Source: Candidatus Nomurabacteria bacterium (GTDB taxonomy: Bacteria > Patescibacteriota > Minisyncoccia > Phycocordibacterales > UBA918). Taken from it: 64,000 nt of DNA. Within the stretch, counting starts at the first letter, position 1. Every line of letters begins with the position of its first letter. Below are positions 1-33,558 of the stretch, one piece after another. Under the pieces are notes generated by a model. That model saw only the letters and a list, made by a program, of their open reading frames with translations, searched no databases and was not told where the DNA came from. Location of the stretch: assembly GCA_023898525.1 (NCBI GenBank), contig CP060227.1, positions 557,634 through 621,633 of the forward strand. Reading direction: 5' to 3'. Position numbers and translations under genes: made by a program.

Positions 1-332
1 AACTCCTTTAATAAATCGTAATCAAACTCACCACCCAGCTTGTTCGAACCGATGAGGTACTGGTCCGCTTCTTTTTTAGTAAATTGACGACTTGGTACTC
101 TGACATCAATCTGTTCATTACCTCGCCCCAATAGCTGTAACGCCCTCATTCTTTGATGACCGGCCAAAATAGTCCCGTCTTTGTTCAGGCAGGGTATCTC
201 AGCTAAACCAAATTTTTTGAGACTCTTTTTAAGTGCTGACATTTGTGTGTCAGTGATTTTTCTTGGGTTTACTTTTTGTGGAATGAGTTCATCCACGGTG
301 CGTACTTCGGTACGCCAGATAATCTTTTTCAT
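1..332 (-). CDS. ParB-like nuclease domain protein. The N-terminal part lies in the window; the gene runs off the window start.
   Basis: The reverse-strand translation begins with ATG at 330-332: MKKIIWRTEVRTVDELIPQKVNPRKITDTQMSALKKSLKKFGLAEIPCLNKDGTILAGHQRMRALQLLGRGNEQIDV... The ILAGHQRMRAL segment resembles the ParB/Sulfiredoxin GxxR motif. The gene is absent from the ORF track because it is truncated by the window edge. Confidence 0.6.
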   Translation of the reverse strand, partial: MKKIIWRTEVRTVDELIPQKVNPRKITDTQMSALKKSLKKFGLAEIPCLNKDGTILAGHQRMRALQLLGRGNEQIDVRVPSRQFTKKEADQYLIGSNKLGGEFDYDLLKE

Positions 333-3227: not shown

Positions 3228-3887
3228 ATGAACAATCAAACTATTTTGGTAGCTATCATCGCACTTCTCATTGGTGGAATTGGTGGTTATGCTATTACAG
3301 ACAAAGATAAATCTTACGGAGACAGAGGGTACGACAAACAAATGTCAGATAATGTGCCAATGGGCATGCATCGTATGCCTGACGGTACACTAATGGGCAA
3401 TCCTACTGATGACGGTGTGGGTGGTATGAGCCAAATGGATCATATGATGGCCATGATGGTTTCAAGTGAACGTGAGTTTATCGAAGGTATGATTCCTCAT
3501 CACCAAGAAGCGGTAGATACCGCCAACGAAGTGATTGAACGTGGTGGCTCAAAACCTGAGATTAAACAATTGGTAGAAGATATCGTCGTTGCTCAAGAAG
3601 CGGAGATTGCTGAAATGAAGCAATGGTATGAAGACTGGTACGGTGAGCCATACACTGACAATGGTGAATATATGCCGATGATGCGTGAACTTGCCAATCT
3701 ATCAGGTGCTGAACTCGACCGAGTCTTCCTTGAAGATATGATTGGTCACCACATGGGAGCGATTATGATGGCTCGTAGCGTGCAGCCATATATCGAGCGT
3801 GATGAGATTGCCGAACTGACGCAGGCAATTGTTTCAACTCAATCAGCCGAAATTGCTCAGATGAGACAGATGTTGCAGGGACTATAG
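3228..3887 (+). CDS. DUF305 family protein (ferritin-like, associated with metal/copper resistance).
   Basis: It has an N-terminal TM anchor and a Met/His-rich linker (MGMHRMPDGTLMGNPTDDGVGGMSQMDHMMAMM). The two repeated motifs MIPHHQEAV and MIGHHMGAIMMA are typical of DUF305. Confidence 0.75.
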   Translation: MNNQTILVAIIALLIGGIGGYAITDKDKSYGDRGYDKQMSDNVPMGMHRMPDGTLMGNPTDDGVGGMSQMDHMMAMMVSSEREFIEGMIPHHQEAVDTANEVIERGGSKPEIKQLVEDIVVAQEAEIAEMKQWYEDWYGEPYTDNGEYMPMMRELANLSGAELDRVFLEDMIGHHMGAIMMARSVQPYIERDEIAELTQAIVSTQSAEIAQMRQMLQGL

Positions 3888-3904
3888 ACCAACAGCTGTA
3901 TTAA

Positions 3905-3939
3905 GAAAACAACCACTCTTTAAGAGAGTGGTTGTTTTC
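3905..3939. terminator. Bidirectional intrinsic terminator: a perfect 15-bp stem with loop ttaa, flanked by A/T runs.
   Basis: gaaaacaaccactct-ttaa-gagagtggttgttttc. Confidence 0.7.
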
Positions 3940-3947
3940 TTAAAAAA

Positions 3948-4001
3948 GTGACATTTGCGTGTCACATTGTGACACTGGTGTTTTTGTGTCACTTTTGTCA
4001 C
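3948..4001. promoter_or_regulatory. Operator-like cluster of GTGTCAC/GTGACAC half-sites.
   Basis: A perfect inverted repeat gtgtcaca-t-tgtgacac lies at 3959-3975. More copies of gtgacat/gtgtcac/gtcac occur at 3948-3954, 3986-3992 and 3997-4001. A GACGCGTC palindrome lies near 4013-4022. The cluster sits at the left edge of the R-M island. Confidence 0.3.
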
Positions 4002-4162
4002 TTTTTTTGCGCACGAGACGCGTCGAAATACAAAAGTTTGCAAATAGCTATTACGTCAAACCCTGCTTGACGGTTTGTGGGTTCTTGCCCGAGACCGCCC
4101 GCACAAAGCACCTGTTATCGGCAGACCCGAAGGCCTTTATTTTGAGCCAATCTGCCAAATAA

Positions 4163-4212
4163 GGTAAAACCAAAAAGTTCGAACCTAGAAGGGTCCGAAC
4201 TTTTTTGGTTTT
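4163..4212. terminator. Long hairpin terminator just downstream of the RloC-like gene.
   Basis: aaaaccaaaaagttcgaac-ctagaagg-gtccgaacttttttggtttt: arms of about 19 bp with one bulge. Confidence 0.65.
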
Positions 4213-4213
4213 A

Positions 4214-6439
4214 TTAGAGTATCTTCATTAGCTCAAAAGCATCTCTTATGTCTTTTTTGTAGTCTTCAATACCGAGTTGGGCAGTAGGATATTGACTTGT
4301 ACCGGAGTGATCGTGGTGCGCTTGATTAGTTAAGATTGCCTCAATATTTGTTCTTCGACTTGTCATTACATAGGAACCGCCTGGCTGTTCTAGTTTTGTG
4401 AGCATGTCACCTACAGTGTTAATCTCTTTGGTAATCTCAAGTGGATATTTAGTCTTGAGAATGTGTTCTATTACTTTACGTATGCTCGCATGAGCATTTT
4501 TTACGAAAGCTAAATCCTGTGAGGAATTAGCATTCTTCATATCTGCAATCCAACAATTGTAGTCACTCATAAACTCAGCATCGTCATGAGGACTACATGC
4601 TATAAAATCAGTTCCACTCGTTGTATCCATAGACAATCTTAGGAAAGTGGCGGTTGCATCACTAGAATTTTCAGCGTGTAGAAGCTGATAAAAACCCTTT
4701 TCATGAGTGAGGAGGACTAGTTGCTTACCGGTATCCTTTAAGATTCTCTTTATTTCAGTAAGAATAATTCTCTTTCGATCAGAGTCGAAGCTAGAAACAG
4801 GATCATCCATGACAACGACCTTGATTGCTGAATCGTTCTTTACAGTAGCAAGGAAGAACGCGAGAGCAAGTACCCATTTATCACTGTCGCTCAAAGCGTT
4901 CTTAATGGTCATTTCACCGTCGTCTCCATCATTAGATATCTCGCTTCCTGACATACTTAACACAAGTAAGTCTTGCCTTTGATTTCCCTTAAAATTAAAT
5001 TTTGTGACCGTGAAATCACAATTACAAGCACTAAGCACGTCATTGATATCCTGTAACATGGATGCTGACAAGCCATTTGCGTAGACTAAATACTCCTCCC
5101 AGAGTTTAGTCTTTTCAGCACTTAACGTTACGTTTTCCTTCTTTGCTTTTTGATAGCTTTCACATCTGTCTTTCCAAGAACTAAATCTTTCTTTGTTTGC
5201 TTCCAGTAATTTTAACGACGTCTCCAACTCCGCTTTTTTCTCAGTTGGATTGGTGAAATTAAGCAGTTCTTTATCAATTGTTGCTATATGCGCTACAGCT
5301 TTCGAGGAAATATCTGTAAAAGGTGTGGTATCAAAATCAGTTGCCAAATCATCCTTCTTATCAGCAACCGCCTTCTCACAAGAACCATATGGACCGTCAA
5401 CATCAGTAAAATCTATAGCTAAATCATAGCCTGCCTGCTTAAGGTCAGTTTTGATCCTACTAATCTCTGCCGTAAAGCTATCCTGTGGAAATAATGCTTC
5501 AGCATCTTTTATTGCTTGCTGTAAAGTTCTGTACTTATCGTTATAGATAAGATCGATAGTCTTCAAGAACTCTTTTACCGAAGGTTCAGTAATCTCTTGT
5601 GTACAAAATGGGCAGTATTCTTTCTCAGTTCGAGCACGTAACTTTGATCCTGTCTGTAAGAAGGAACTGTAGGACTGTTTACTTTCTTTCTGATTTACAT
5701 GACTATCGTAATGCTTAGTGACTAGCTCGCTATTTACTGAAAGTTTCTCTGAAATATTTGTACTATCAAAATCCCTGTATCGTTCAAGCAGACTTTTTAT
5801 ACTGCCGAGTTTACTCGATATCAACTCAGAATTTTTAATCTTATCGAGAGAGTTCTTTTCTTCCTCGATTTTGCGATCAATGTCAGCGACTTCTGTAAGT
5901 CCAAGAAAATCGTCAAATGATAGACCACCTAATAGGTTTTTGTTTCTGTTGTACTCTGAACTAACCGATGTCTGAGTTCGTGTATTTTCAGCAATCTGCT
6001 CAGTGAGTTTTGTAATATTCGCGTTATACTCAGCACCTTTAGCACCGAGCATAAAAGCTTCAATATTCTTTTGTTGTTCCTGTCCGATTTGCTGATTCTG
6101 TGTGTATACACTTTCTCTTACAAAGTGATTGTCAAAGACGATGATGTCCTTATATTCTGCACTCCACTTTGCCTCATCAGTAGTGTATCTGTATTCACCT
6201 GTTGGGGTGGTAACTTCAGGAATAATTTTAACTGTCTGTTTCTGAGTTCCAATCGTTTTCCTTCCAATAATATAATCTGTTCTGTTTTCCTTTAGTGCGC
6301 GAAAGATTGCAGTCAGAGTACTCTTCCCGTGAGTGTTTTTACCGTAGATAAAAGTATTCTTTTTAAAGAACTGTGCATCCCCATCAGTTTTTGCTGATTT
6401 GAAACGTCCTACGTTAGTAATCTCAATTTTCTTTATCAT
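4214..6439 (-). CDS. rloC: RloC/PrrC-like restriction-linked anticodon nuclease. It has an ABC/SMC-type ATPase head, a coiled coil with a CxxC zinc hook, and a C-terminal nuclease-like region.
   Basis: Walker A is GKNTHGKST at the N-terminus. The Walker B/D-loop is VVVMDDPVSSFD. A long Lys/Glu-rich coiled coil carries a central CPFC, a Rad50-like hook as in RloC. A His-rich C-terminus resembles the PrrC ACNase region. The gene lies directly downstream of hsdS in the same operon, the classic prr/rlo arrangement. Confidence 0.6.
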   Translation of the reverse strand: MIKKIEITNVGRFKSAKTDGDAQFFKKNTFIYGKNTHGKSTLTAIFRALKENRTDYIIGRKTIGTQKQTVKIIPEVTTPTGEYRYTTDEAKWSAEYKDIIVFDNHFVRESVYTQNQQIGQEQQKNIEAFMLGAKGAEYNANITKLTEQIAENTRTQTSVSSEYNRNKNLLGGLSFDDFLGLTEVADIDRKIEEEKNSLDKIKNSELISSKLGSIKSLLERYRDFDSTNISEKLSVNSELVTKHYDSHVNQKESKQSYSSFLQTGSKLRARTEKEYCPFCTQEITEPSVKEFLKTIDLIYNDKYRTLQQAIKDAEALFPQDSFTAEISRIKTDLKQAGYDLAIDFTDVDGPYGSCEKAVADKKDDLATDFDTTPFTDISSKAVAHIATIDKELLNFTNPTEKKAELETSLKLLEANKERFSSWKDRCESYQKAKKENVTLSAEKTKLWEEYLVYANGLSASMLQDINDVLSACNCDFTVTKFNFKGNQRQDLLVLSMSGSEISNDGDDGEMTIKNALSDSDKWVLALAFFLATVKNDSAIKVVVMDDPVSSFDSDRKRIILTEIKRILKDTGKQLVLLTHEKGFYQLLHAENSSDATATFLRLSMDTTSGTDFIACSPHDDAEFMSDYNCWIADMKNANSSQDLAFVKNAHASIRKVIEHILKTKYPLEITKEINTVGDMLTKLEQPGGSYVMTSRRTNIEAILTNQAHHDHSGTSQYPTAQLGIEDYKKDIRDAFELMKIL

Positions 6440-6440
6440 G

Positions 6441-8054
6441 TTAAATAACCGCCTTCAGTGTGCTTACCATCTCCATCAACTCTTCAACCTTTTTTACGAT
6501 GCGTTTTTGCTCAGCAAGGGGTGGGAGTGGCACTATACAAGATGACCATCTTGTAAGATTCACAAGAGGTGTTGCTCCACCAGAAGCTTTGCTCCAAACT
6601 AATTTCTGAAAGTATTCAGTCTGAAAGACAAAAGACAGATAGCGACCGTCAGTGTGAAATGGCGTGATTTTATTTATCTGCTGATTGAAAGTATAGGTTC
6701 CGTCAACGTATGCCGATTTCCCAATTGTGCCACCTATGCAAACCATTAGGACGTCGCCGGGGTGAAGATACTTTGACTCTGAAGCACCTTGAGTAGTAAC
6801 TAATTTTGAGTATGAATTAATCGTTCTGTTCTGAATGTCACCGGGACCAATAAATGGAATTTCTCCTCCATAATTTCCATTCACGCCAGTACGTGGAGTT
6901 TTGCCAGTATCCAGTTTACCAATCTCAATAAGACGTACCCAGCGCCACGATTCAGGTATTTCAAACGGCGTTTCGCCCTCTGCAACATCAAGAACTTTTG
7001 ACTTCTTACCTTTAACTTTATTATTTAGTTCTAATTGAATTTCTGTATACAAATCCTCAGCTGTGCCTTCACTTTTATCTTGAGAGACGAGTTTGCCAGA
7101 AACGGCGAGAGTAAGAATGGCGTTTTCTAGCTCCTTGATATCTTGTGGAGTTTTGATTAGTTCAGTAAGTTGTTCAAAGGCAACTTTCGAATCAGCAGAT
7201 CCGAGTGCTTGCATAGCACTTCGTGTAAGACGAACACGGATCAAATCACGTTCATTTTTTTGTGACTCTAATTCATCGAGCTGCTTCATTACCACTTCAA
7301 TTTTCTCAACGATACGTTCTTGTTCTTTGGGTGGGACAAGGACAAAGACTTCATTCGCAAATGCACTACCAGATATCTCTTTAAATGTGGTACCAGTAGC
7401 CCTTAGGTTTATATCATCAGCTCTAAGTGTTAAAAACCAATATAGAAATTTAGAGTTTATGCCCGAGTGTGGTACCAAAGATTTAAAACCTTGATTTGTT
7501 GTGAGAGGATTTTCAGCAATTCCCACATAACCAATTGGAGCGCGACTTGAAAAAATGACAGAGCCTTTAGGCATCAAGGTTGTTGATGATTTTTTATATG
7601 CCTCTTCAGTGATGTTCTTTTTACCCGACTTAATAAACACTCCACTCTGCTGGCGCATATCAGCTGGGGTAAGCCAAGGAATAGAATTTGGAGTATCAGG
7701 ATCAACGAAATAAGTTGATTTTGTAGTTGATGGCGTACCTCCTCCCACAACTTCGCCTATCTCTACCAATCGTACCCACTTCCAAGACTGTGGTACTTCA
7801 AAGGGTACCTCTTCTTGTGAAATAGGTAATATTTCTCTGGTCTTTTTTCTTCGACTTGAAGCTAATAACCCATCCTTTGTCTTGAGAATTTCATTGTAAA
7901 GATCCTGTGCTGTGCCTTCCTGTTCATCTTGAGCTAGTAGTTGACCAGACATAGCCAAAGTCAGTACCGCTTTTCGTAGACGATTTATTCCATCTGGTAC
8001 TTCTATGAAGTCATTGATATTCTCAGCAACAATTTTTACATCACTTGGTGTCAT
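6441..8054 (-). CDS. hsdS: Type I restriction-modification specificity subunit HsdS with two target-recognition domains.
   Basis: The protein has a duplicated TRD architecture with conserved central and C-terminal coiled-coil repeats (EQERIVEKIEVVMKQLDELE and LPPLAEQKRIVKKVEELMEMV). It overlaps hsdM by 14 nt. Confidence 0.9.
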   Translation of the reverse strand: MTPSDVKIVAENINDFIEVPDGINRLRKAVLTLAMSGQLLAQDEQEGTAQDLYNEILKTKDGLLASSRRKKTREILPISQEEVPFEVPQSWKWVRLVEIGEVVGGGTPSTTKSTYFVDPDTPNSIPWLTPADMRQQSGVFIKSGKKNITEEAYKKSSTTLMPKGSVIFSSRAPIGYVGIAENPLTTNQGFKSLVPHSGINSKFLYWFLTLRADDINLRATGTTFKEISGSAFANEVFVLVPPKEQERIVEKIEVVMKQLDELESQKNERDLIRVRLTRSAMQALGSADSKVAFEQLTELIKTPQDIKELENAILTLAVSGKLVSQDKSEGTAEDLYTEIQLELNNKVKGKKSKVLDVAEGETPFEIPESWRWVRLIEIGKLDTGKTPRTGVNGNYGGEIPFIGPGDIQNRTINSYSKLVTTQGASESKYLHPGDVLMVCIGGTIGKSAYVDGTYTFNQQINKITPFHTDGRYLSFVFQTEYFQKLVWSKASGGATPLVNLTRWSSCIVPLPPLAEQKRIVKKVEELMEMVSTLKAVI

Positions 8055-9486
8055 GGTGAGAAAGTGCTTCGGTAAGCACAGCGCGAATTTTTTCGAGAGT
8101 AACTTCTACTTCTTTTTTCTTAGTTCGGTAGACTTCAAGTAATTCTTCTGGAGACTCAAGCACATCAACTGGGGTACGTGGATTCTTGATATCGAGGTTG
8201 TAGTTTCGCTTTACAATCTCATCAATAGATACTTTCCATGCACGATCATTCTCTTCTCGGTTATTCCACCATTCTTTCACTGGCTCAAATTCTTCAACCC
8301 TGATTGGATTGGTCATTGAATATGCTTTCTGACCTTCTGGAAGTGAGTGTTCGTAATACCAGACCTCTTTTGTAGGTTCGCCTTTAGTAAAGAACAGGAG
8401 GTTTGTGGCAATACTTGTGTATGGAGCAAACACGCTCTTTGGAAGACGGACAATGGTGTGAAGGTTGCACTCCTCAAGCAGTTGCTTCTTTAGAGCAGTT
8501 TTCATCCCTTCACCAAAGAGAGTACCGTCTGGCAAAACGATACCTGAGCGACCATGTTTCTTGAGCAAGCGGAGAATAAGTACAAGGAAGAGGTCAGCGG
8601 TTTCTCTGGTTTGGAATTCCTTCGGAAAATTGGCTTCGATACCTGGCTCTTCAGTACCACCAAAAGGGGGATTTGTAACAACACAATCTACTTTGTCAGC
8701 ATCGGTGTAGTCTCGAATCGGTTTCTCGAGGGTATTGCCACGACGCATAGTAACCGGCTCTTCAATACCATGGAGCATCATATTGGTCAGAAGGAGCATA
8801 TACGGTAACGGTTTCTTCTCCACGCCGTGAATACTTTGCTGAATCTTCTGCTCGTCCTTTACCGACTTCACTTGCTTACGCATGTGTTCAAGCGAATGAA
8901 CCAAGAAGCCACCGGTACCCGATGCAGGGTCTAATACTGACTCGCCAACCTTTGGATCAACCATTTCAACAATGAACTGCGTCACAGCTCGTGGCGTATA
9001 CATCTCTCCAAAGTTTCCGGCACTTTGAAGACTCTTCAGAAGACGCTCGTATACATCATTGAAAACGTGACGATCTTTTGAGGCATTGAAGTCAATCTCG
9101 TTAATCTTGTTTATCACTTGCTTTAACAGTGTCCCTTTACGCATGAAGTTATAGACATCTTGAAACGCCATACGGGTAAGGTCGGTACGTTGGTTGCCAT
9201 TCTTTGGTAAATCGCGAAGCCCAGGAAGCAGATCATTGTTTACAAACTCAATGAGCTTGTCTCCCGTCATTCCATCCATAGGAGCAGCCCACGTGCGCCA
9301 TTGATACTTCACAGGAAGAGTCGGGACATATTTCTCCTTACGAATTTCCAGTGCTCGATCCTCATCATCGAGGATCTTTAGAAAGATCAGCCACACCATC
9401 TGCGATAGCCGAGTCGCATCACCGTCAACACCAATATCTTGGCGCATGATGTCCTGGATGGCTTTAATTGTTGCGGGAGTAAGCAT
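8041..9486 (-). CDS. hsdM: Type I R-M N6-adenine DNA methyltransferase HsdM.
   Basis: It has the HsdM N-terminal domain. The SAM-binding motif is VLDPASGTGGFL. The catalytic motif IV is VVTNPPFGG (NPPF). Confidence 0.95.
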   Translation of the reverse strand: MLTPATIKAIQDIMRQDIGVDGDATRLSQMVWLIFLKILDDEDRALEIRKEKYVPTLPVKYQWRTWAAPMDGMTGDKLIEFVNNDLLPGLRDLPKNGNQRTDLTRMAFQDVYNFMRKGTLLKQVINKINEIDFNASKDRHVFNDVYERLLKSLQSAGNFGEMYTPRAVTQFIVEMVDPKVGESVLDPASGTGGFLVHSLEHMRKQVKSVKDEQKIQQSIHGVEKKPLPYMLLLTNMMLHGIEEPVTMRRGNTLEKPIRDYTDADKVDCVVTNPPFGGTEEPGIEANFPKEFQTRETADLFLVLILRLLKKHGRSGIVLPDGTLFGEGMKTALKKQLLEECNLHTIVRLPKSVFAPYTSIATNLLFFTKGEPTKEVWYYEHSLPEGQKAYSMTNPIRVEEFEPVKEWWNNREENDRAWKVSIDEIVKRNYNLDIKNPRTPVDVLESPEELLEVYRTKKKEVEVTLEKIRAVLTEALSHHDTK

Positions 9487-9489
9487 AGA

Positions 9490-11856
9490 TTATTGTGCGT
9501 ACATTACATCGAGTAATTCATCGACCGTTTGGAAGTATCCTTCTTTTCCACCAAAGAGCGATACGAGTTCGTAATCAGTACCCATTGAACGAAGTGGTTC
9601 TAGAGTAAGAATTCGAACGCTCTCAATGTCTTTAAGAGTAACGTCAGCATATTTCTCAAGAAGTGCTTCAAGCACTTCTCGTGCCTTTCCGCTGTACTTA
9701 TCAAGATAGTTTGAGCGGCGTACCGCTTCAATACGCTCATTCTTCTTCATCATCTTCTTATCATAGGCAACGTGCATGATGAGATCAAACAAATCAAAAT
9801 CTGCTCCAACTTGCTTCTGAAGCTCCTCGAGCGGAATACCACTCGCATCAATTTTATCAATAATAGCTTGGCGACGTTCTGCTGATTGCCAGGCACTGAA
9901 GAAACTTTCGAGTGTTGGGTAGTGCGTGAGAATATTCTTTTTGGTGAAATCAGTAAGCGATTGTGTGAGGAGTTTGCCGTCGGGACCAAGGTATTGCACT
10001 TGTTCCTTTACCACTGCGTACGGCACGCCGCTGAGTTTGTAGACTGGTGGACGTTCTGCAACCTCTTCTGAACCTTGTGAAATAACAGCGTCTACAAGTT
10101 CGTCTTCTTCAAACTTTTCCTCGACTGACATGTCTTCTGGATCTTCCGCTTCTATAGTTTCAGCAATATCTTCATCTTCTCCAACTTCAAATACACGCTC
10201 AGCGACACCGTCAAAGGCAGGGTCAGCAAAAAGTTTTGTGGCACCTTGAAAGTCCATAATCGTGAACCACATCTTTCCTTTGTCTTCACGAACTCGGGTA
10301 CCTCGACCAATAATCTGCTTAAACTCAGTCATGCTCTCAATCGGCTTGTCGAGCACAATGAGTTTGCAGGTTTGAGCATCCACACCAGTTGAGAGAAGTT
10401 GCGAGGTAGTAACAATTGTTGGGAATCGCTCTTCTGGGTCAATGAAGCGGTCAAGTTGATTCTTTCCTTCTTCATCGTCACCTGTAATACGCATGACGTA
10501 ACGAATATCCTCTCGGGCTCGTTCACCAGCTACATTTACTAACGCACTACGCATACGTTCAGCGTGAGCAGTTGTACGGCAAAAAACAATTGTCTTTGCA
10601 TATGGGTCTTCTACTGCTTCAAGGTACTCAAATATCTTTTCTGCAATTACTTTCTCTCGCTGTGGGAAGATAACGGATTTATTAATATCGCGAAGTTCAT
10701 AGAGTCGATCTTCTACTGGATTCCCATTATCATCTACGGTACCTGGCACAGGGCGCCAGCCAGTCACATCGTTATCGAGTAATACCCGCATAACCTTGTA
10801 TGGTGCCAAGAATCCATCATCAATACCTTGCTTGAGTGAGTAGGTATAGATAGGGTCACCAAAATAGTGTGAGGTGCTGGTGTCAGCGGTTTCTTTTGGT
10901 GTAGCGGTAAGACCAAGGTGTGTTGCTCCAGTAAAGTGCTCAAGAATTTCTCGCCACTCGCTATTTTCTGAAGCGCTACCTCGGTGACACTCATCAATAA
11001 CAATAAGATCGAAGAAATCTGAAGGTAATCGTTTGAAGAGTTTCTCTTCCTCTTCCTTGCCACTCATTGCTTGGTAGAGACTAAGGAATATTTCATGAGA
11101 CATCAGTGACCCTAGATCATTGAAGTTCTGTCGTGAAATCTTAGTTAGTGCATCACCAAAGTGCTTGAGGTCATTAATGCGTGCTTGGTCAACAAGAATA
11201 TTTCTATCAGCTAAAAACAATACTCGCTTTGCGCTACCAGACTTCCAAAGACGCCAAATAATCTGTCCAGCAGTGTACGTCTTTCCAGTACCAGTAGCCA
11301 TAACGAGTAAAATGCGTTTCTGACCACGCGCTACAGCCTCAACTGCTCGATCAATAGCAATACGTTGGAAATATCGTGGCGATTTGTTTGGGTCGTCAGA
11401 ATATAGTGGGGTTTCAATTACATTCTTAACAGCTTCAGCTTCACCCTTCCATGTGAGGTATCGAGCATACAATTCATCTGGTGATGGAAATTGGTCAGGA
11501 GTGAGAGTAGTCTCAGTCTCTGGTGAGAGACCAGTTCGGTCATGAAAAAGGAAACCCTCACCATTTGCCGAGAAAACGAATGGGACATCGAGCGCTGATG
11601 CGTACCCAAGAGCCTGCTGCATTCCTGCACCAAGATCTTTGGCAGCCGACTTTGCCTCCACAAGAGCAATTGGAAGATTTGGTCGGTACTCAAGAAGAAA
11701 GTCTACTTTCTTCTTTTCTCCTCGTTTAGCAACACGTCCGCTAACGTGAATGCGGCCCATCGTGTATGGGTACTCCTCTCGTATCTGGTGATCATTCCAT
11801 CCAGCACCTACTATGGTAGGGCGAATGAGACGATTTCTTGTTTCTTCTTCATTCAT
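9490..11856 (-). CDS. hsdR: Type I restriction enzyme R subunit HsdR.
   Basis: The N-terminus is a PD-(D/E)xK nuclease (VDFLL...VEAK). The SF2 helicase region carries Walker A (LLVMATGTGKTYTA), a DEAH box (IVIDECHRG) and motif VI (GRGTR). An HsdR C-terminal helical domain follows. At 788 aa it is shorter than many HsdR proteins, but all core domains are present. Confidence 0.9.
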   Translation of the reverse strand: MNEEETRNRLIRPTIVGAGWNDHQIREEYPYTMGRIHVSGRVAKRGEKKKVDFLLEYRPNLPIALVEAKSAAKDLGAGMQQALGYASALDVPFVFSANGEGFLFHDRTGLSPETETTLTPDQFPSPDELYARYLTWKGEAEAVKNVIETPLYSDDPNKSPRYFQRIAIDRAVEAVARGQKRILLVMATGTGKTYTAGQIIWRLWKSGSAKRVLFLADRNILVDQARINDLKHFGDALTKISRQNFNDLGSLMSHEIFLSLYQAMSGKEEEEKLFKRLPSDFFDLIVIDECHRGSASENSEWREILEHFTGATHLGLTATPKETADTSTSHYFGDPIYTYSLKQGIDDGFLAPYKVMRVLLDNDVTGWRPVPGTVDDNGNPVEDRLYELRDINKSVIFPQREKVIAEKIFEYLEAVEDPYAKTIVFCRTTAHAERMRSALVNVAGERAREDIRYVMRITGDDEEGKNQLDRFIDPEERFPTIVTTSQLLSTGVDAQTCKLIVLDKPIESMTEFKQIIGRGTRVREDKGKMWFTIMDFQGATKLFADPAFDGVAERVFEVGEDEDIAETIEAEDPEDMSVEEKFEEDELVDAVISQGSEEVAERPPVYKLSGVPYAVVKEQVQYLGPDGKLLTQSLTDFTKKNILTHYPTLESFFSAWQSAERRQAIIDKIDASGIPLEELQKQVGADFDLFDLIMHVAYDKKMMKKNERIEAVRRSNYLDKYSGKAREVLEALLEKYADVTLKDIESVRILTLEPLRSMGTDYELVSLFGGKEGYFQTVDELLDVMYAQ

Positions 11857-11860
11857 AAAA

Positions 11861-12064
11861 TTAGTTGCTCTTGGTTAAAAAACTGATGATGTCCTCTTTA
11901 CGGTAGCGACGGTCTTTTCTTGTACCAAAGCGTAGTGCTTTTAATACACCGTTATTGTCCCACTTACGAAGCGTGTTGGGGTGGCAATTGAGAACATCAC
12001 AGGCCTGTTGCAAGGTCAGGATGTCTGGCAGCTCCAATAGCTTTTTTTCGTGGTTCGTTGGCAT
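11861..12064 (-). CDS. Small helix-turn-helix DNA-binding protein of the excisionase/AlpA/MerR-like HTH_17 type, immediately upstream of hsdR.
   Basis: LTLQQACDVLNCHPNTLRKWDNNGVLKALRFGTRKDRRYRKEDI matches the Xis/AlpA-like HTH signature. It could act as an excisionase or as a controller of the R-M operon. Confidence 0.65.
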   Translation of the reverse strand: MPTNHEKKLLELPDILTLQQACDVLNCHPNTLRKWDNNGVLKALRFGTRKDRRYRKEDIISFLTKSN

Positions 12065-12090: not shown

Positions 12091-12510
12091 CTAATTTTCG
12101 AGGATGACCATTTTATTTTTAAGCTTGATTTCAGACTTGAAGCATCCCATCAACTCCCGCTTCTCTTCATTTGAACCCTCCTTTAGCACGTACTTGGCGT
12201 AGTCTCTGAGGTTTATATCTTGATGATCGCTAGCCCTCCCCTTGATGCCGAGCACCCCTTTATGGAATTTGTTGAATCGCTTCAACTCCTCCTCGAATTT
12301 AACCTGTACTCCTGTCTCATTGAGATTAATCTTGTCCATGAGCTTGCTGAACTGCTCAGTAAGCTCTTCTTCCCGCATGTATGGATTCTTGCAGTGGCGG
12401 TCTTTAGAGCGACCACACCCGTAATAGATGTACTTAGCAGTAGTGCCATCTTTTAATGCTTTATACTTTTCTTCCGCACTGATACCAGAACCACAGAGTC
12501 CACAAGTCAT
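12091..12510 (-). pseudogene. C-terminal remnant of a large serine recombinase (zinc beta-ribbon plus coiled-coil tail). The catalytic resolvase and recombinase domains are missing.
   Basis: CGLCGSGI...YIYYGCG is the recombinase zinc-ribbon signature (CxxCG...YYxC). The ORF is only 139 aa. Its reading frame stays open 10 codons upstream of the ATG (...KGKEFTFTKL-M) and then hits a stop. There is no room for the roughly 300-aa N-terminal catalytic part. Confidence 0.55.
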
Positions 12511-12622
12511 AAGCTTTGTAAAAGTAAATTCCTTGCCTTTTTATACAAACTTAGATACTGTTGCAAACGGAAATACGACACAGTGAGCAATATATACAAA
12601 CTACAACTTTAGGAGGTGTCCT

Positions 12623-13291: not shown

Positions 13292-13610
13292 AGTAATTTT
13301 TAACCTCTATGCTTTTAAAGCCCTCAATAAGTTGGGGGCTTCATCTTTATCTATTTGACATCAGACCAACCGATATTACTTTTGTTCTGTTTGATTCGTT
13401 ATTTTTACTCAACCAAGGCGTCCCTTACTTGTATATTTTCTGGGACAAAGTTTTAAAGCGGTACACACGCCCAAAACCGTTGCTGTAGATAGGTAAACAC
13501 TACTACCTATTTTTTTGGGAAATTGATTGACTCCAACCCGGATCTAAAAAAACTCTTATTTACTGTTAATGTTATACTGTCACGCACACTAGAAACTGTA
13601 GTTACTCAAC

Positions 13611-14177
13611 ATGAATAAACAAAAAAAGCGCTGTTGGAATATTTCTGAAGACGACACATTGATGGCTGATTATCACGATAACGAATGGGGTAAGCCGGTA
13701 CATGATGATCGACATTTATTTGAAATACTAATATTAGACGGCGCCCAAGCTGGTCTGTCGTGGCGGACAATTTTGAGTAAACGTGATAATTACCGCCAAG
13801 CCTTTGATAATTTTGATGTTCAAAAAGTAGCTCAATACAATGAAAAAAAGATTGAAGAACTAATGAATAACGAAGGGATAGTCCGCAACCGCCTAAAGAT
13901 TCAGTCAGCCATCAGAAACGCCAAGGTATTCATGGAAATACAAAAAGAGTTTGGGTCATTTGATAAATATATCTGGAGTTTTTCAGGCGGTAAAACCATC
14001 AAAAATAATTGGACGAAGCAAGAGGACGTACCCGCCACTTCCCCGCTCTCAGATGAGATTAGTAAGGATTTGAAAAAACGCGGTATGAATTTTGTCGGTT
14101 CCACTATTATTTATGCAGCGATTCAAAGCATTGGTATTGTCGACGACCATTTGGTCGGCTGTCATAAAAATTGGTAA
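13611..14177 (+). CDS. tag: DNA-3-methyladenine glycosylase I.
   Basis: RCWNISEDDTLMADYHDNEWGKPVHDDRHLFEILILDGAQAGLSWRTIL closely matches the Tag family signature, including the zinc-binding Cys/His. The length is typical (188 aa). Confidence 0.9.
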   Translation: MNKQKKRCWNISEDDTLMADYHDNEWGKPVHDDRHLFEILILDGAQAGLSWRTILSKRDNYRQAFDNFDVQKVAQYNEKKIEELMNNEGIVRNRLKIQSAIRNAKVFMEIQKEFGSFDKYIWSFSGGKTIKNNWTKQEDVPATSPLSDEISKDLKKRGMNFVGSTIIYAAIQSIGIVDDHLVGCHKNW

Positions 14178-14241
14178 ATATAAGAAAAGAAAAAACCAGC
14201 TGCACATGGCAACTGGCTCAATATTTTTGTTACTGCTGTTT

Positions 14242-14834
14242 TTACCCCTCAGAATAAAAGAGGTGGCTCCCCGCTCTGCAGACAAAGAATTCACGCTTTG
14301 CCCACTCTGGCGGAGTCTCCACAATGTCTGGGTTGTAGTACAAAACTGCACCCGGACAAGGATTTGCTATGCGATCAGTCAACACATCTACCACAACTTT
14401 TTCAATTTCAACATATCTGTTGAAATATTTTGGTTGCAATAACTCGCTGAACTGCACAGTACACACTCCATCGTACTGACATTTTATATCACCTGGGCGA
14501 TTTTCATTTCTTTGATAGATGACATTTATCATTCTATCTGGAAATTTTTCTGAGAACATTCTGGTCAATACAGTATACGTTACCGCAGGCCAACTGTTAG
14601 GATCCCATTTATCAACCCAGACTTCGCTGTAGACTAGCCGAGTAAGAGAATCTACAACAAACTCCCATTCTTTTTCAGAATGGATATTGTATGGATATTG
14701 TATGGATAGAATGAATAAGAAGTCACCTGAAGTGGGATTGTTAGACCGCCACTTTCATATTTGATACTAGACTTACCAGTAACCGCCCAAAACGTCAAAA
14801 TAACTACTATAAGAATTACAGAAATAATCCTCAT
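14242..14834 (-). pseudogene. Secreted protein gene (about 187 aa if repaired) disrupted by a frameshift caused by an 11-bp tandem duplication.
   Basis: ORF 14652..14834 carries a signal peptide (MRIISVILIVVILTFWAVTG) and ends ...FYPYNIHTISIL*. ORF 14242..14568 continues upstream in another frame as ...SIQYPYNIHSEKEWEFVVDSLTRLVYSEVWVDKWDPNSW... Removing one copy of atggatattgt gives one continuous ORF, ...SYSFYPYNIHSEKEWEF... Confidence 0.5.
14679..14707. repeat. Tandem repeat (atggatattgt)x2 plus a partial copy (atggata), located inside a coding sequence.
   Basis: Seen directly in the sequence. The 11-nt unit shifts the reading frame. Confidence 0.85.
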
Positions 14835-14880
14835 TTCATCCCCTTAAATAACAAAAATATATGACTCATAATAACACGAA

Positions 14881-15570
14881 TCACATTTTTGTCAATGTCT
14901 GCTGACCAACCTGTTCTGAATCGTTGTTATGATCTACAGAAAATTTTCTTAAAATTCTTGGTGCAAACGGGATTTTCTGTCTTCGCCTCATCCAGTAATA
15001 ACCAATCGTAGCAACAATGATAGCGCCTGCTCCATTAAAGATAAAATCCCACATAGTATCGGGCAAGCCATTTTCTTGCATTGTGTAACCAAACAGAGTA
15101 TCCCCTGCATATTCGTAAATTTCCCAAACCACAGATAAAGCTAAAGAAAAACAAACGGCAAACACTGAGATGAAACCGGGGCTCATAGTGAGTTTATCTG
15201 ATCGCCTGGCGTTCAAAATATAAACCATGACAAACCCTACCACCCCGAGCAATATGCCAGATTGAAAATGAAGCACCGTATCCCACCAATAGAATTTTTC
15301 ATAAAAATCATTTAGACTACCCAAAAACAAAGAGAGAAAAATAAAAACCACGATGGCAAAATCGAGTTCAAACGGCATGTAAAAACGATACTGCATCCGC
15401 AAGAAGGAAGGGGTTATCATAAGCAGCAATATAAATACCGCACTAACCGCTGACTCCCACTCACCATAGAAAAGAAAAACGAACACCGACAAAGCCACAA
15501 AGGCTCGCATTCCGAAATAAATATTTAAAGCCAGTTTATTTCGTTCACCATTATTATAGTCACGACTCAT
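14881..15570 (-). CDS. Polytopic membrane protein, hypothetical.
   Basis: It has six or more hydrophobic segments. I recognise no motif. Confidence 0.5.
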   Translation of the reverse strand: MSRDYNNGERNKLALNIYFGMRAFVALSVFVFLFYGEWESAVSAVFILLLMITPSFLRMQYRFYMPFELDFAIVVFIFLSLFLGSLNDFYEKFYWWDTVLHFQSGILLGVVGFVMVYILNARRSDKLTMSPGFISVFAVCFSLALSVVWEIYEYAGDTLFGYTMQENGLPDTMWDFIFNGAGAIIVATIGYYWMRRRQKIPFAPRILRKFSVDHNNDSEQVGQQTLTKM

Positions 15571-15644
15571 AAACTTTATTATACAAAGATTACACCTTTT
15601 TACTACACTATACGTACTTCTGAAAAATATGCTTTAATCAATGA

Positions 15645-16256
15645 GTGCATGATAAACATTCAGACCTTATAGGCTTAGGCATTGTAGTCATTTTGTTTGG
15701 TCTAGCTTTATATGTAAGCCAATCTTTTGGTGCTGAACTTGGAGCGTACTTGAACTTTGGCTTCAGTGGCATGTTCATCTATGTATTATTGGGAATAATC
15801 GCCACTGTAGCTGCCCCAATTACAACTGTCCCTTTGATACCGATTGCGACCAGCCTTTGGGGGGCTTTTATCACTGGGCTTTTAAGTGTAGTAGCATGGA
15901 CAATCGGAGCAATAATCGCCTTTATGTTAGCTCGTCGCTTTGGCAGACCAATATTAAGCAAGTACATTGACCTATCAAAAATCTCTAGGTACGAAAAGAT
16001 TTTTGGTGATGAACAAATATTTTGGCAAATTGTCATCTTGCGCATGATGATACCGGTGGATATTTTAAGTTATGCGATTGGATTATTTTCGACCGTGAAA
16101 TTAAGTACTTATACCGCCGCCACAATTATTGGTATCTCCCCTTTTGCTTTCATTCTAGCCTATATGCCCAATATGGACTTAACTATACAAATCTATGTCG
16201 GTATCTTTATCGCCATAGTAGCCTATCTTGGTTATAGAAAATTTAACCGCAAGTAG
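15645..16256 (+). CDS. DedA/TVP38/TMEM64-family membrane protein.
   Basis: VPLIPIATSLWG and the ARRFGR motif match the SNARE-associated (DedA) family. Confidence 0.7.
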   Translation: MHDKHSDLIGLGIVVILFGLALYVSQSFGAELGAYLNFGFSGMFIYVLLGIIATVAAPITTVPLIPIATSLWGAFITGLLSVVAWTIGAIIAFMLARRFGRPILSKYIDLSKISRYEKIFGDEQIFWQIVILRMMIPVDILSYAIGLFSTVKLSTYTAATIIGISPFAFILAYMPNMDLTIQIYVGIFIAIVAYLGYRKFNRK

Positions 16257-16274
16257 TCTATTTTTATTTGAGTC

Positions 16275-16973
16275 CTAGTCAGTATCTATATCTGTAAACA
16301 ACCATGTACTCTTCATTTTTCTCAAGATGCAAACTGGTGTCAAACCTTGGTTACAATCGGTATCGTTTTCCAACCTCTTTACAATAACCTGCTTTTCTTT
16401 ACCGGCTGCGTAGACGATAGCAAAATCAATTTGTTCAATCATGAAAGTTGGGGTGACGGTGATACGCTTAGTGTATTCATTTACCTCTTTTGGTACTTCA
16501 TATGACACCGCCCACTTACCCAAAGCAAAGCTATTAGCATAATCTCCCGGCATGATACCGGCCGTGTGGCCATCTAGACCAATCCCAACCGTAGCAATTA
16601 TAATTCCGGAAGGATTCTCTTGTCGCCATTCCCTCAACTCAGTCTCCCACTTTTCTGCAACCTCTTGGCAACCATTGTTATCATAAACTTTGGTGGAAAT
16701 AGTCTTTACCTTTTTACCTGACGCCCGTTTATAAAATTCTGTCTTTTCTATTTGAGCGAAGTTGTTTATATTTTCGTCAGAAGAACAGCGTTCATCCAGA
16801 ACTGTCAGTGTCAGGTTTTCACTTAAACTTTCTGCAGCTATTTGATCCAGTAATGTCAAAGCCGAGCCACCAGAAAGCATGAGTAGAACAGACTGATCTT
16901 TATATTTAATTAACAATTGTTGCAACGCTTTGCCGGCTTCTTCGGCTGGATTTTTTGATCGGATAACCTCCAT
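16275..16973 (-). CDS. pgl: 6-phosphogluconolactonase (DevB/Pgl family).
   Basis: The motifs LMLSGGS and GIGLDGHTAG fit the GlcN6P-deaminase/6PGL fold. The gene lies directly downstream of zwf-gnd. Confidence 0.7.
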   Translation of the reverse strand: MEVIRSKNPAEEAGKALQQLLIKYKDQSVLLMLSGGSALTLLDQIAAESLSENLTLTVLDERCSSDENINNFAQIEKTEFYKRASGKKVKTISTKVYDNNGCQEVAEKWETELREWRQENPSGIIIATVGIGLDGHTAGIMPGDYANSFALGKWAVSYEVPKEVNEYTKRITVTPTFMIEQIDFAIVYAAGKEKQVIVKRLENDTDCNQGLTPVCILRKMKSTWLFTDIDTD

Positions 16974-16974
16974 A

Positions 16975-17874
16975 TTAATCCTTGTTTACCACCTTATGTC
17001 CACCAAATTGATTACGCATAGAAGCTACCAACTTACCTAAATAAGACTCTTTTTCGCGAGTAACTTTTCTTTGCTCTAGGGCCGCCTTGAGGACTTTTGT
17101 CTCTCCTATAGTCAGGATATGTTCCATTTCAAATTCTGTCTCACCGGTTGGTACCACCCCAGCCACCACATCTATCTGTCCTTCTTCATAAGCCTGTCTA
17201 AGCCAGGTCACTAACTTACTCGTTATAATACTTTCGTGTTCATAGGGTTTAAACACCTCTTTTAGATCAATACCAAACTCTTCTTCATGTTCATGTAACA
17301 CAGTCACACCTTCTGCAATCGCCCCCATCATGCCATACTCAATGCCGTTATGCACCATCTTTACAAAATGTCCCGCTCCTTCATTACCTACTCGCGCATA
17401 CCCATTTGGTGCTGCCAGTGTCTCAAAAATATGTTCATGTTCAGCGAATATTTCCGGCTTTCCACCAACCATAATCGAAGCTCCATACCGAGCTCCCTCC
17501 ATACCGCCAGACATACCACAATCTAAGAAATTCAACTCCTTCTCCACTAAAGCTTTATGTCGTCTGAGTGAATCTTGATAAAAACTATTCCCACCATCAA
17601 TCACTGTGTCACCCTTAGCCAAAAGTGGTATTAGTTCATCAAGGACACTGTCGACCAGTTTGCTCGGCACCATTAGCCACACCACCCTGTCTTCGGGCAA
17701 AGCGGCCGTCATCTCAGAATAATTCTCAACCACTTCCACTCCAGCTGCTTTGGCGGCCTTTTGCGCTTCTTCGTTTGGATCAAACCCTACTACTCTATAA
17801 CCTTTTTCTACCAACAGAGCTGTCATATTTAAACCCATGCGACCAAGTCCGATAAAACCAATTTCTTTTTTCAT
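16975..17874 (-). CDS. gnd: 6-phosphogluconate dehydrogenase (decarboxylating), short YqeC-type form.
   Basis: The N-terminal Rossmann motif is IGFIGLGRMGLNM. It also has GGNS...GTSGG-like motifs (DCGMSGG). The length is about 300 aa. Confidence 0.85.
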   Translation of the reverse strand: MKKEIGFIGLGRMGLNMTALLVEKGYRVVGFDPNEEAQKAAKAAGVEVVENYSEMTAALPEDRVVWLMVPSKLVDSVLDELIPLLAKGDTVIDGGNSFYQDSLRRHKALVEKELNFLDCGMSGGMEGARYGASIMVGGKPEIFAEHEHIFETLAAPNGYARVGNEGAGHFVKMVHNGIEYGMMGAIAEGVTVLHEHEEEFGIDLKEVFKPYEHESIITSKLVTWLRQAYEEGQIDVVAGVVPTGETEFEMEHILTIGETKVLKAALEQRKVTREKESYLGKLVASMRNQFGGHKVVNKD

Positions 17875-33432: not shown

Positions 33433-33505
33433 GCGCCTTTAGCTCAGTTGGTAGAGCAGCTCCCTTTTAAGGAGACGGTCCAAGGTTCGAGCCCTTGAAG
33501 GCGCA
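33433..33505 (+). tRNA. tRNA-Lys (anticodon UUU).
   Basis: The cloverleaf was folded by hand. The acceptor stem is gcgcctt/aaggcgc. The D arm is gctc-agttggta-gagc. The anticodon arm is gctcc-CTTTTAA-ggaga (27:43 is a G.A mismatch; the loop equals the E. coli tRNA-Lys loop). The T arm is caagg-TTCGAGC-ccttg. The discriminator is A, and no CCA is encoded. Confidence 0.85.
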
Positions 33506-33558
33506 CAAATATTAAAACCCTCCGAACGGAGGGTTTTAATATTTGTGCGCCTTCAAGG
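33494..33558. repeat. A perfect inverted repeat with 31-bp arms whose left arm starts inside the tRNA-Lys 3' end (T-stem and acceptor strand).
   Basis: cttgaaggcgcacaaatattaaaaccctccg-aac-cggagggttttaatatttgtgcgccttcaag. Confidence 0.85.

Follow-up and report, generated by a model that had tools for sequence, protein, structure and literature searches.

An RloC-type predicted anticodon nuclease gene at the end of a type IB restriction-modification operon on a decayed mobile island of Candidatus Nomurabacteria

PrrC and RloC as the closest described systems

The closest described systems to the locus treated here are the anticodon nucleases (ACNases) PrrC and RloC. PrrC of Escherichia coli (341–416 aa) combines an ABC-ATPase with a C-terminal ACNase and resides inside the type I hsd operon of EcoprrI (type IC) in the order M-S-PrrC-R; it is silenced by the external Hsd complex and activated by the Stp peptide and dTTP, and thereby represents the concept of a two-layer defence. 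Genes for PrrC always occur within a type I hsd locus, and the protein is further marked by an Arg at the 3' end of Walker A and by the PrrC box, with an unusual nucleotide specificity. RloC (COG4694; GkaRloC of Geobacillus kaustophilus, AbaRloC of Acinetobacter baylyi) was defined by a length of 658–897 aa, roughly double that of PrrC, by PrrC-like ABC-ATPase motifs, by an insert that is mostly helical and bears a CX2C zinc hook at its centre, and by a C-proximal Arg-X3-Glu-X36-52-His triad (Davidov & Kaufmann 2008, PMC2610378). In this study, a gene for a predicted RloC-type protein of 741 aa was analysed, which forms the end of a type I restriction-modification (R-M) operon in a stretch of 64,000 nt of a Candidatus Nomurabacteria bacterium (CP060227.1). 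This whole stretch is referred to as the window, and all coordinates are window positions.

The triad corresponds to R692/E696/H737 in GkaRloC and to R320/E324/H356 in EcoPrrC, and mutation of any of these residues abolishes the activity of GkaRloC (PMC2610378). GkaRloC and AbaRloC excise the wobble nucleotide through two successive cuts, whereby mutations in the zinc hook activate the nuclease and Zn2+ inhibits it (PMC2610378, PMC3458546, PMC3874168). The ATPase of RloC is DNA-dependent, prefers DNA termini and turns the nuclease on, and in the case of AbaRloC inducers of DNA double-strand breaks (DSBs) activate the nuclease even in an R-M-deficient host (PMC3458546, PMC3874168). A contribution of R-M systems to RloC, in cis or in trans, was explicitly left open by Davidov & Kaufmann and by Klaiman et al. 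The nuclease domains of RloC and PrrC were assigned to the HEPN superfamily and called distinct in sequence, and ABC-HEPN proteins were noted in prophages (Anantharaman et al. 2013, PMC3710099). Earlier work thus already covers RloC itself, the homology between it and PrrC, the fact that its gene at times resides in R-M operons and on mobile elements, and the assignment of its nuclease domain to HEPN (PMC2610378, PMC3710099, PMC3458546, PMC3874168); a literature search yielded no paper linking RloC to Patescibacteria.

Identity and predicted structure of the 741-aa protein

The gene rloC (4214..6439, minus strand) encodes a protein of 741 aa, which is very likely an ACNase of the RloC family, while the cleavage itself would be extrapolated from GkaRloC and AbaRloC. 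This assignment is made because all published defining sequence features are present in the protein and invariant among its homologues. The Pfam profile PF13166 (AAA_13) matched residues 18–710 (profile positions 8–688 of 713, E=7.8e-32), and this match spans into the C-terminal domain. Ten PADLOC models of PDC-S06 also matched (best E=7.4e-44), whereas in the NCBIfam scan no model reached its own cut-off. PDC-S06, the best PADLOC model family for this protein, denotes a candidate system of single-gene AAA_13 proteins that was defined computationally, and says nothing about mechanism; judged from the motifs, it seems to overlap with RloC. A database search with the protein revealed 71 homologues, more than 50 of which are 738–742 aa long and 49–88% identical, with the remainder reaching down to ~21% identity. 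Several close homologues have the IMG product name 'wobble nucleotide-excising tRNase'.

The ABC-ATPase motifs were inspected in an alignment of 30 homologues covering the full identity range down to 21%. In the Walker A motif GKNTHGKST (residues 33–41; 6317..6343, minus strand), G38, K39 and T41 are invariant, and the motif is followed by Leu and, as in other RloC proteins, lacks the Arg typical of PrrC at this position. The helical (coiled-coil) insert (residues 120–471; 5027..6082, minus strand) carries the zinc-hook motif CPFC at residues 276–279 (nt 5603–5614), and both C276 and C279 are invariant. Behind the insert follow the ABC signature LSDSDK (residues 516–521), the segment VVVMDDPVSSFD (residues 541–552) with Walker B (VVVMDDP, residues 541–547) and D-loop, and the switch residue His579 (altogether 4703..4894, minus strand). 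Invariant columns of this region are S517, D520, D545, D546, P547, S550, D552 and H579, and residues 514–582 align to Rad50.

The predicted ACNase/HEPN-like domain occupies approximately residues 615–741 (4217..4597, minus strand). R654 (nt 4478–4480), E658 (nt 4466–4468) and H708 (nt 4316–4318) are invariant among the 30 homologues, and their spacing (R654-x3-E658-x49-H708) fits the published Arg-X3-Glu-X36-52-His pattern. When the C-terminal domain was aligned alone, these three residues were the sole invariant columns. In some distant homologues a Ser directly precedes the triad His, which matches the description in PMC2610378. By these comparisons, the catalytic and regulatory motifs of rloC are all intact.

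A preliminary description of this DNA, made from the sequence, had assigned Walker A, Walker B and CPFC motifs to a 741-aa product of the fourth operon gene and had recognised in it the architecture of RloC. All quoted motifs were found, and the proposed architecture is borne out by the defining features, by their invariance among the homologues and by the modelled Rad50/SMC-like head and HEPN-like C-terminal domain. The profile searches, which had been suggested as a check, revealed a near full-length AAA_13 protein with an ACNase-like C-terminal domain and not a member of an unrelated SMC/AAA family, and the comparison of the C-terminus with the Arg/Glu/His triad gave the agreement in spacing mentioned above. 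Only the 'His-rich C-terminus' needs correction: an HHDH cluster is present (residues 708–711), but it is really one invariant His, H708, that stands out.

The protein is only ~20–28% identical to relatives from other phyla and differs in this respect from the described RloC proteins. Thirty such relatives were scanned; 29 of them possess the central C-x-x-C hook, and the strict Rx3E...H pattern occurs in 18. A relative from Campylobacter concisus (L051), which belongs to the genus where the rlo genes were named, carries the same hook and triad motifs. PrrC shares with the 741-aa protein the ABC-ATPase with a C-terminal ACNase domain, the same R/E/H triad logic and the location inside a type I hsd operon, but has neither coiled coil nor zinc hook, whereas a helical insert of ~350 aa with CPFC is present here.

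A full-length AlphaFold2 model, calculated from the alignment of 30 homologues, reached a mean predicted local distance difference test score (pLDDT) of 85.8. In this model, residues 1–119 and 472–614 build the ABC head, followed by a helical C-terminal domain, and long helices (residues 120–165 and 423–471) lead into the helical insert, with CPFC in the loop at its midpoint. The Rad50-like hook that was to be confirmed by modelling is therefore predicted as a helical insert with CPFC in a loop, at a confidence of only ~70 in the hook region. Foldseek searches of the full model against the PDB yielded the ATPase heads of SMC, Rad50, condensin, cohesin, LmuB, JetC and the retron Ec83 ATPase (best E=1.3e-10). 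With the alignment profile, the Rad50 ATPase was found among the PDB sequences (E=1.8e-8), and the Rad50 hook fragments 6zff (E=0.0026, query residues 206–341) and 1l8d (E=0.019, query residues 224–310) matched weakly. Sequence, profile and fold searches of the PDB revealed only Rad50, SMC and ABC heads and no structure of RloC or PrrC.

The C-terminal domain (residues 606–741) was also modelled alone (pLDDT 82.1) and consists of five predicted helices. Its top fold matches are mostly HEPN proteins, several of which are RNases, and the five-helix model agrees with the HEPN assignment in PMC3710099. As modelled, the head thus resembles Rad50/SMC and the C-terminal domain HEPN. When 1.84 billion proteins were searched with a profile of this domain, 781 cluster representatives matched; of the best 150, the majority are ~730–785 aa long with the domain at the C-terminus. 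Carriers of the domain with only 350–404 aa were considered as PrrC candidates and rejected: three of them, with V or L as first residue, are fragments of RloC that have lost the N-terminus, and the fourth, which begins with M, lacks a Walker A motif.

Rad50, SbcC and SMC proteins (including LmuB and JetC) are the best structural and PDB-sequence matches of the 741-aa protein, with which they share the fold of the head, a coiled-coil insertion between Walker A and signature and the CxxC zinc hook. Since LmuB, JetC and the retron Ec83 ATPase also occur among the Foldseek and PADLOC matches, and the NCBI annotation reads only 'AAA family ATPase', the protein might be a non-nucleolytic accessory ATPase that aids the R-M system on DNA, as LmuB and JetC sense DNA, with the C-terminal domain as a mere adaptor. 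This is very improbable. The sole invariant residues of the C-terminal domain are those of the published nuclease triad (R-x3-E-x49-H), the top fold matches of this domain are predominantly HEPN proteins including RNases, and the AAA_13 match extends through it. Furthermore, Rad50, SbcC and SMC proteins have no C-terminal HEPN/ACNase domain and act with separate nuclease partners (Mre11/SbcD, LmuA, JetD), whereas the operon lacks an additional gene for an effector nuclease comparable to LmuA or JetD; the helical insert of the 741-aa protein, at ~350 aa, is also much shorter. The assignment to RloC is therefore retained.

Operon, mobile island and neighbourhoods of related genes

Five genes on the minus strand constitute the operon. 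It is opened by a gene for a 67-aa excisionase/MerR-like DNA-binding protein (HTH_17; 11861..12064), which is followed by the four tightly packed open reading frames (ORFs) of hsdR (9490..11856; 788 aa), hsdM (8041..9486; 481 aa), hsdS (6441..8054; 537 aa) and rloC. The gaps amount to 4 nt between the HTH_17 gene and hsdR, 3 nt between hsdR and hsdM and 1 nt between hsdS and rloC, so that the ATG of rloC lies 1 nt past the hsdS stop codon; hsdM and hsdS overlap by 14 nt. An intrinsic terminator-like hairpin with a 14-bp stem and a T-run (4172..4205, minus strand) begins 9 nt past the rloC stop codon and marks the end of the operon. The gene spacing is operonic, and the unit reads HTH_17-hsdR-hsdM-hsdS-rloC-terminator beside a dead recombinase gene. 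The four genes and the order R-M-S-RloC had been described correctly before, but the operon starts one gene earlier than assumed, with the HTH_17 ORF (Pfam HTH_17 E=1.6e-10; PADLOC mad1 E=2e-6). The product of this ORF may be an operon regulator or a recombination directionality factor.

The three hsd genes are predicted to encode a complete R-M enzyme of type IB (EcoAI family) in a single operon. HsdR, the full-length restriction subunit, scored 1044.8 bits against NCBIfam NF046051 (EcoAI/FtnUII family type I subunit R; cut-off 550), with residues 1–786 aligned to positions 1–767 of 768, and contains the Pfam domains ResIII, Helicase_C, HSDR_N_2 and EcoEI_R_C (PADLOC REase_I E=1.1e-297). HsdM, the N6-adenine DNA methyltransferase subunit, matched Pfam N6_Mtase (E=8e-77) and HsdM_N as well as PADLOC MTase_I (E=6e-207, over 5–472 of 491), and its translation shows the motifs DPASGTGGF and NPPF. 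The specificity subunit HsdS has two target-recognition domains (TRDs); Pfam Methylase_S matched in two stretches (E=2.5e-46), and PADLOC Specificity_I aligned residues 22–536 to positions 36–568 of 589 (E=1.3e-97). These near end-to-end matches, together with gene boundaries identical to those given before, leave the completeness of hsdR, hsdM and hsdS as originally described. A MADS system was considered, as HsdM and HsdS match mad2 and mad5 and the HTH protein matches mad1, and was rejected, as the scores of the type I models are much better and HsdR corresponds to the EcoAI equivalog. Inverted hsdS repeats were not found, and there is thus no sign of recombinase-driven phase variation of hsdS or of a shufflon.

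The Hsd proteins and the 741-aa protein are 100% identical to the NCBI entries MCB9810693-96 and USN87278-81 of Candidatus Nomurabacteria bacterium, encoded on a contig of 1,087,875 bp, which agrees with the earlier attribution to a host of the candidate phyla radiation (CPR). The remainder of the window is ordinary chromosome with genes for G6PD, PolA, a PBP, a type IV pilus ATPase and a TraG-like ATPase. Upstream of the operon lies a 5'-truncated serine recombinase gene (12091..12549, minus strand), with an ORF at 12091–12510 (139 aa) and homology continuing to 12549. Only the C-terminal third is left (Pfam Zn_ribbon_recom E=3.1e-7), and the remnant is regarded as a pseudogene because the catalytic N-terminal part is lost. 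In tblastn comparisons, it was 77% identical to residues 290–439 of a serine recombinase (444 aa) located ahead of the R-M/rloC module of a close orthologue (L081), and 40–78% identical to the recombinases of eight other orthologue loci. The operon therefore sits on a decayed integrative island of the Candidatus Nomurabacteria chromosome. The remnant abuts a housekeeping phosphoribosyltransferase gene, and the island is probably immobilised.

For a survey of the family, one genome per species was used, which gave 249 confirmed relatives; 80 loci with flanks of up to 10 kb were kept. The neighbourhoods were read by tblastn with queries for two type I families, type III, ISP-like systems, methyltransferases and recombinases, and in addition from Pfam-annotated contigs. 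The Hsd proteins of the window alone, used as queries, miss R-M systems of other families beside the closest relatives, which the broader queries recover. In the broad family, ~10–13 of the 80 loci show R-M components nearby, which resembles the 8 of 72 rloC genes found linked to R-M in the 2008 survey (PMC2610378). In four distant relatives (L010, L021, L055, L056) the gene lies between hsdS and hsdR in the prrC-like order M-(S)-X-R.

Among orthologues of 55–88% identity, the context of 13 loci including the window was available. The window itself shows the order recombinase remnant-HTH_17-R-M-S(IB)-rloC. In L089 (88%), rloC follows an HsdS with the same framework and different TRDs, and in L084 (87%) it follows an M-S-R set of type IB, the Hsd proteins of which are only 30–36% identical to those of the window. 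L081 (77%) has the arrangement recombinase-HsdM (812 aa)-HsdR (1007 aa, another type I family)-rloC. In L086 (74%), a fusion of AbiEii with a Type_ISP_C methyltransferase precedes rloC, which is followed by a DinG-like helicase. Type III systems occur in L087 (71%; recombinase-rloC-Mod-Res, then a reverse transcriptase of a diversity-generating retroelement and bAvd) and in L003 (71%; Mod-Res-rloC, the latter frameshifted), and in L090 (55%) rloC is followed by a recombinase and a methyltransferase with DpnII, a type II system nearby. The remaining loci (L083, L085, L088, L002, L001) contain N6_N4 methyltransferases only, often with recombinase and terminase-like genes.

A complete R-M system thus directly adjoins rloC in 7 of the 13 close loci, with four kinds represented and type I systems of two families in three gene orders; this frequency in the CPR clade contrasts with the rarity of such linkage in the 2008 survey. 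Gaps to a same-strand gene directly upstream of rloC are small throughout: five loci have 1–5 nt, L089 has 14 nt and L003 has ~70 nt. Its location as the last gene, behind hsdS and translationally coupled to it, also distinguishes the window gene from described rloC genes. A linkage of homologues to hsd genes in particular, as had been anticipated, is not kept, whereas linkage to some R-M system is frequent in the close clade.

Two loci bear on the origin of the window arrangement. In L085, an HTH_17 gene with 89% identity to that of the window directly precedes rloC, and in L091 an HTH_17-hsdR-M-S cassette, with an HsdR at least 90% identical to that of the window, occurs without rloC. The window arrangement is thus a mosaic, in which HTH_17 and rloC of a serine-recombinase element became separated by the insertion of an R-M cassette, and this insertion explains the unusual order R-M-S-RloC. 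From the genomic context we infer that, in the close clade, rloC is conserved cargo of a serine-recombinase element and, placed at the edge of the R-M cassette that happens to adjoin, is transcribed together with it.

In the place of rloC, L091 carries three genes (13420–17550, plus strand; 838, 349 and 189 aa), for which no significant Pfam or PADLOC match was found and which are a candidate for an undescribed R-M-linked module. A further defence gene may be present on the island of L084, where the second gene downstream of rloC (8761–9273, plus strand) matches PADLOC PD-Lambda-3_A (E=8.5e-16). The retroelement pair of L087 (RVT_1 reverse transcriptase and bAvd, 14570–15970) stands directly after the rloC-type III module on a CPR contig. 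In L003 (10001–12216), the frameshift of rloC lies near codon 200, as seen from two tblastn segments in different frames, and reflects either a pseudogene or an assembly error.

The recombinases raise the question of which partner benefits from RloC. Possibly, though this is doubtful, RloC serves the mobile element, a prophage-like island, as a superinfection-exclusion or addiction module, which would fire on DNA breaks when the balance of R-M and methyltransferase is lost or a competitor enters. A serine recombinase lies within 10 kb of rloC in 9 of the 13 close loci (the window remnant counted), these loci also contain terminase-like genes, ParB-methyltransferase fusions and a LexA-like repressor, and the ABC-HEPN proteins noted in prophages (PMC3710099) would be in line with such a role. 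In the window, however, a truncated recombinase and the lack of a terminase contrast with the full integrity of rloC and hsdRMS, which implies that selection now acts at the level of the host. Moreover, this explanation alters the beneficiary and not the molecular mechanism, and is only partly a rival.

Several further features lie around the operon. The left window edge cuts a gene for an N6_N4 DNA methyltransferase, of which the N-terminal part (3–329, minus strand) is present; it is 53% identical to the methyltransferase of the rloC islands L085, L088 and L002, and to the left of the window the island may continue or a further part of it may follow. Genes for copper/metal resistance (DUF305/DUF4142, HMA P-type ATPase, cupredoxin) adjoin the rloC island both in the window (3228–3887, plus strand) and in L083, L085, L086 and L088, which suggests that the integration neighbourhood is conserved or that the island is part of a larger composite one. 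Half-sites of the sequence GTGACA/TGTCAC ('gtgacaaaagtgacacaaaaacaccagtgtcacaatgtgacacgcaaatgtcac', 3950–4015) are clustered in the spacer that separates the DUF305 gene from rloC; the cluster resembles a repeated operator for some DNA-binding protein, and Rfam gave no match above threshold. A structured RNA was not found in the spacer 3888–4213, where Rfam returned only sub-threshold hairpin matches and the fold z-score was -1.6. Unrelated to the operon are a 944-aa protein with RTX calcium-binding repeats (26326–29160, minus strand), a possible surface component of an episymbiont, and a TraG/VirB4-like P-loop ATPase (55348–57141, minus strand), a possible component of type IV secretion.

Mode of action and significance

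The reading preferred here combines the five-gene operon on a decayed island, a genuine RloC and a mechanism with generic coupling to restriction that is taken over from the biochemistry of the Geobacillus and Acinetobacter proteins; as a whole it is considered likely. By this analogy, RloC would dimerise via the ABC head and be kept silent by the zinc hook. Binding of DNA ends and hydrolysis of ATP by the Rad50-like head would release the C-terminal HEPN-type nuclease, which would cut tRNA anticodon loops and remove the wobble nucleotide, so that translation would stop in the infected cell. That this internal switch applies unchanged to the protein of the window is judged moderately probable. 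The coupling to restriction is probably generic rather than a specific PrrC-type contact between Hsd and RloC; it might consist in co-expression from the cargo operon or in a signal of DNA ends or failed restriction that is read by the Rad50-like head.

A different regulation would apply if RloC were, like PrrC, held inactive on the upstream Hsd complex and freed as a suicidal tRNase by an anti-restriction protein of a phage. The translational coupling of rloC to hsdS across a gap of 1 nt, the direct neighbourhood to R-M systems in more than half of the close loci and the position of the four distant relatives between hsdS and hsdR, exactly like prrC, would be in accordance with such a partnership, and the role of R-M was left open in the RloC literature. 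Nevertheless, this regulation is unlikely. Among orthologues of 55–88% identity, the neighbouring R-M system varies (IB, another type I family, ISP-like, III, II) or is absent, and docking of one conserved protein on all of these is improbable; the hsdRMS cassette of the window occurs in L091 without rloC; the Walker A motif (GKNTHGKST-L) lacks the terminal Arg typical of PrrC; and AbaRloC is activated in an R-M-deficient host. The operon also differs from that of PrrC in its order HTH-R-M-S-RloC and in its type (IB). A dedicated Hsd silencer is hence unlikely because the partner of rloC varies, because sometimes no R-M system is present, and because the same cassette exists without rloC, and the variable partner fits the published internal switch of DNA ends, ATPase and zinc hook. 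The suicidal backup upon disabling of the R-M system, which the preliminary description had proposed, follows the PrrC paradigm and could not be upheld, as the RloC literature shows an internal switch, the partner varies and the cassette occurs without rloC. The only tRNA gene within the window encodes tRNA-Lys(UUU) (33433–33506, plus strand), the classical substrate type of PrrC, which is probably a coincidence.

Several points weigh against the reading with an internal switch and generic coupling. The canonical HEPN motif Rx4-6H is not kept in the RloC family: R654-x4-H659 is present, yet H659 varies (E, Y, N or G in homologues), and H708 has no Arg 4–6 residues ahead. Cleavage of tRNA, substrate and trigger would be extrapolated from proteins that probably share only ~20–25% identity with the one studied here. 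The confidence of the AlphaFold2 model is ~70 around the hook (residues 230–300) and falls below 50 in the loop 710–714 just past H708. The adjacency to R-M systems in 7 of 13 close loci would also be expected from a PrrC-like physical partnership. Finally, under the published model of RloC as a DSB sensor, every successful restriction event would seemingly trigger the enzyme, an awkward property in an abortive system.

A more far-reaching picture is that rloC acts as a 'universal plug-in' second layer in this clade of Patescibacteria. A conserved cargo slot headed by HTH_17 on a serine-recombinase element would take up interchangeable R-M cassettes (type I, ISP-like, III, II). RloC would respond to a signal shared by all of these, DNA ends that restriction generates or fails to resolve, and not to one particular partner protein, and the 838-, 349- and 189-aa genes of L091 would be an undescribed backup module of equivalent function linked to R-M. 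This is regarded as rather unlikely.

The known concept of RloC is unchanged by these results; the protein is an ordinary member of a known family, and the value of its description is incremental. New are the correct reading of a misannotated locus, the presence of the family in Patescibacteria and the picture of swapped cassettes. The public NCBI annotations ('AAA family ATPase', 'DEAD/DEAH box helicase', 'N-6 DNA methylase' and 'restriction endonuclease subunit S') can be corrected to a type IB R-M system with an RloC-type predicted anticodon nuclease. The same rloC beside four kinds of R-M systems, and the same cassette with a different downstream gene, provide a natural experiment on the old question of whether RloC needs an R-M partner. 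It had been argued that a two-layer defence is costly for a tiny genome; this argument is weakened, as the genes are cargo of a decayed mobile island and not part of the core genome. Beyond R-M alone, ultra-small bacteria of the CPR thus carry a predicted tRNase of the abortive-infection type, which they acquired on mobile islands.

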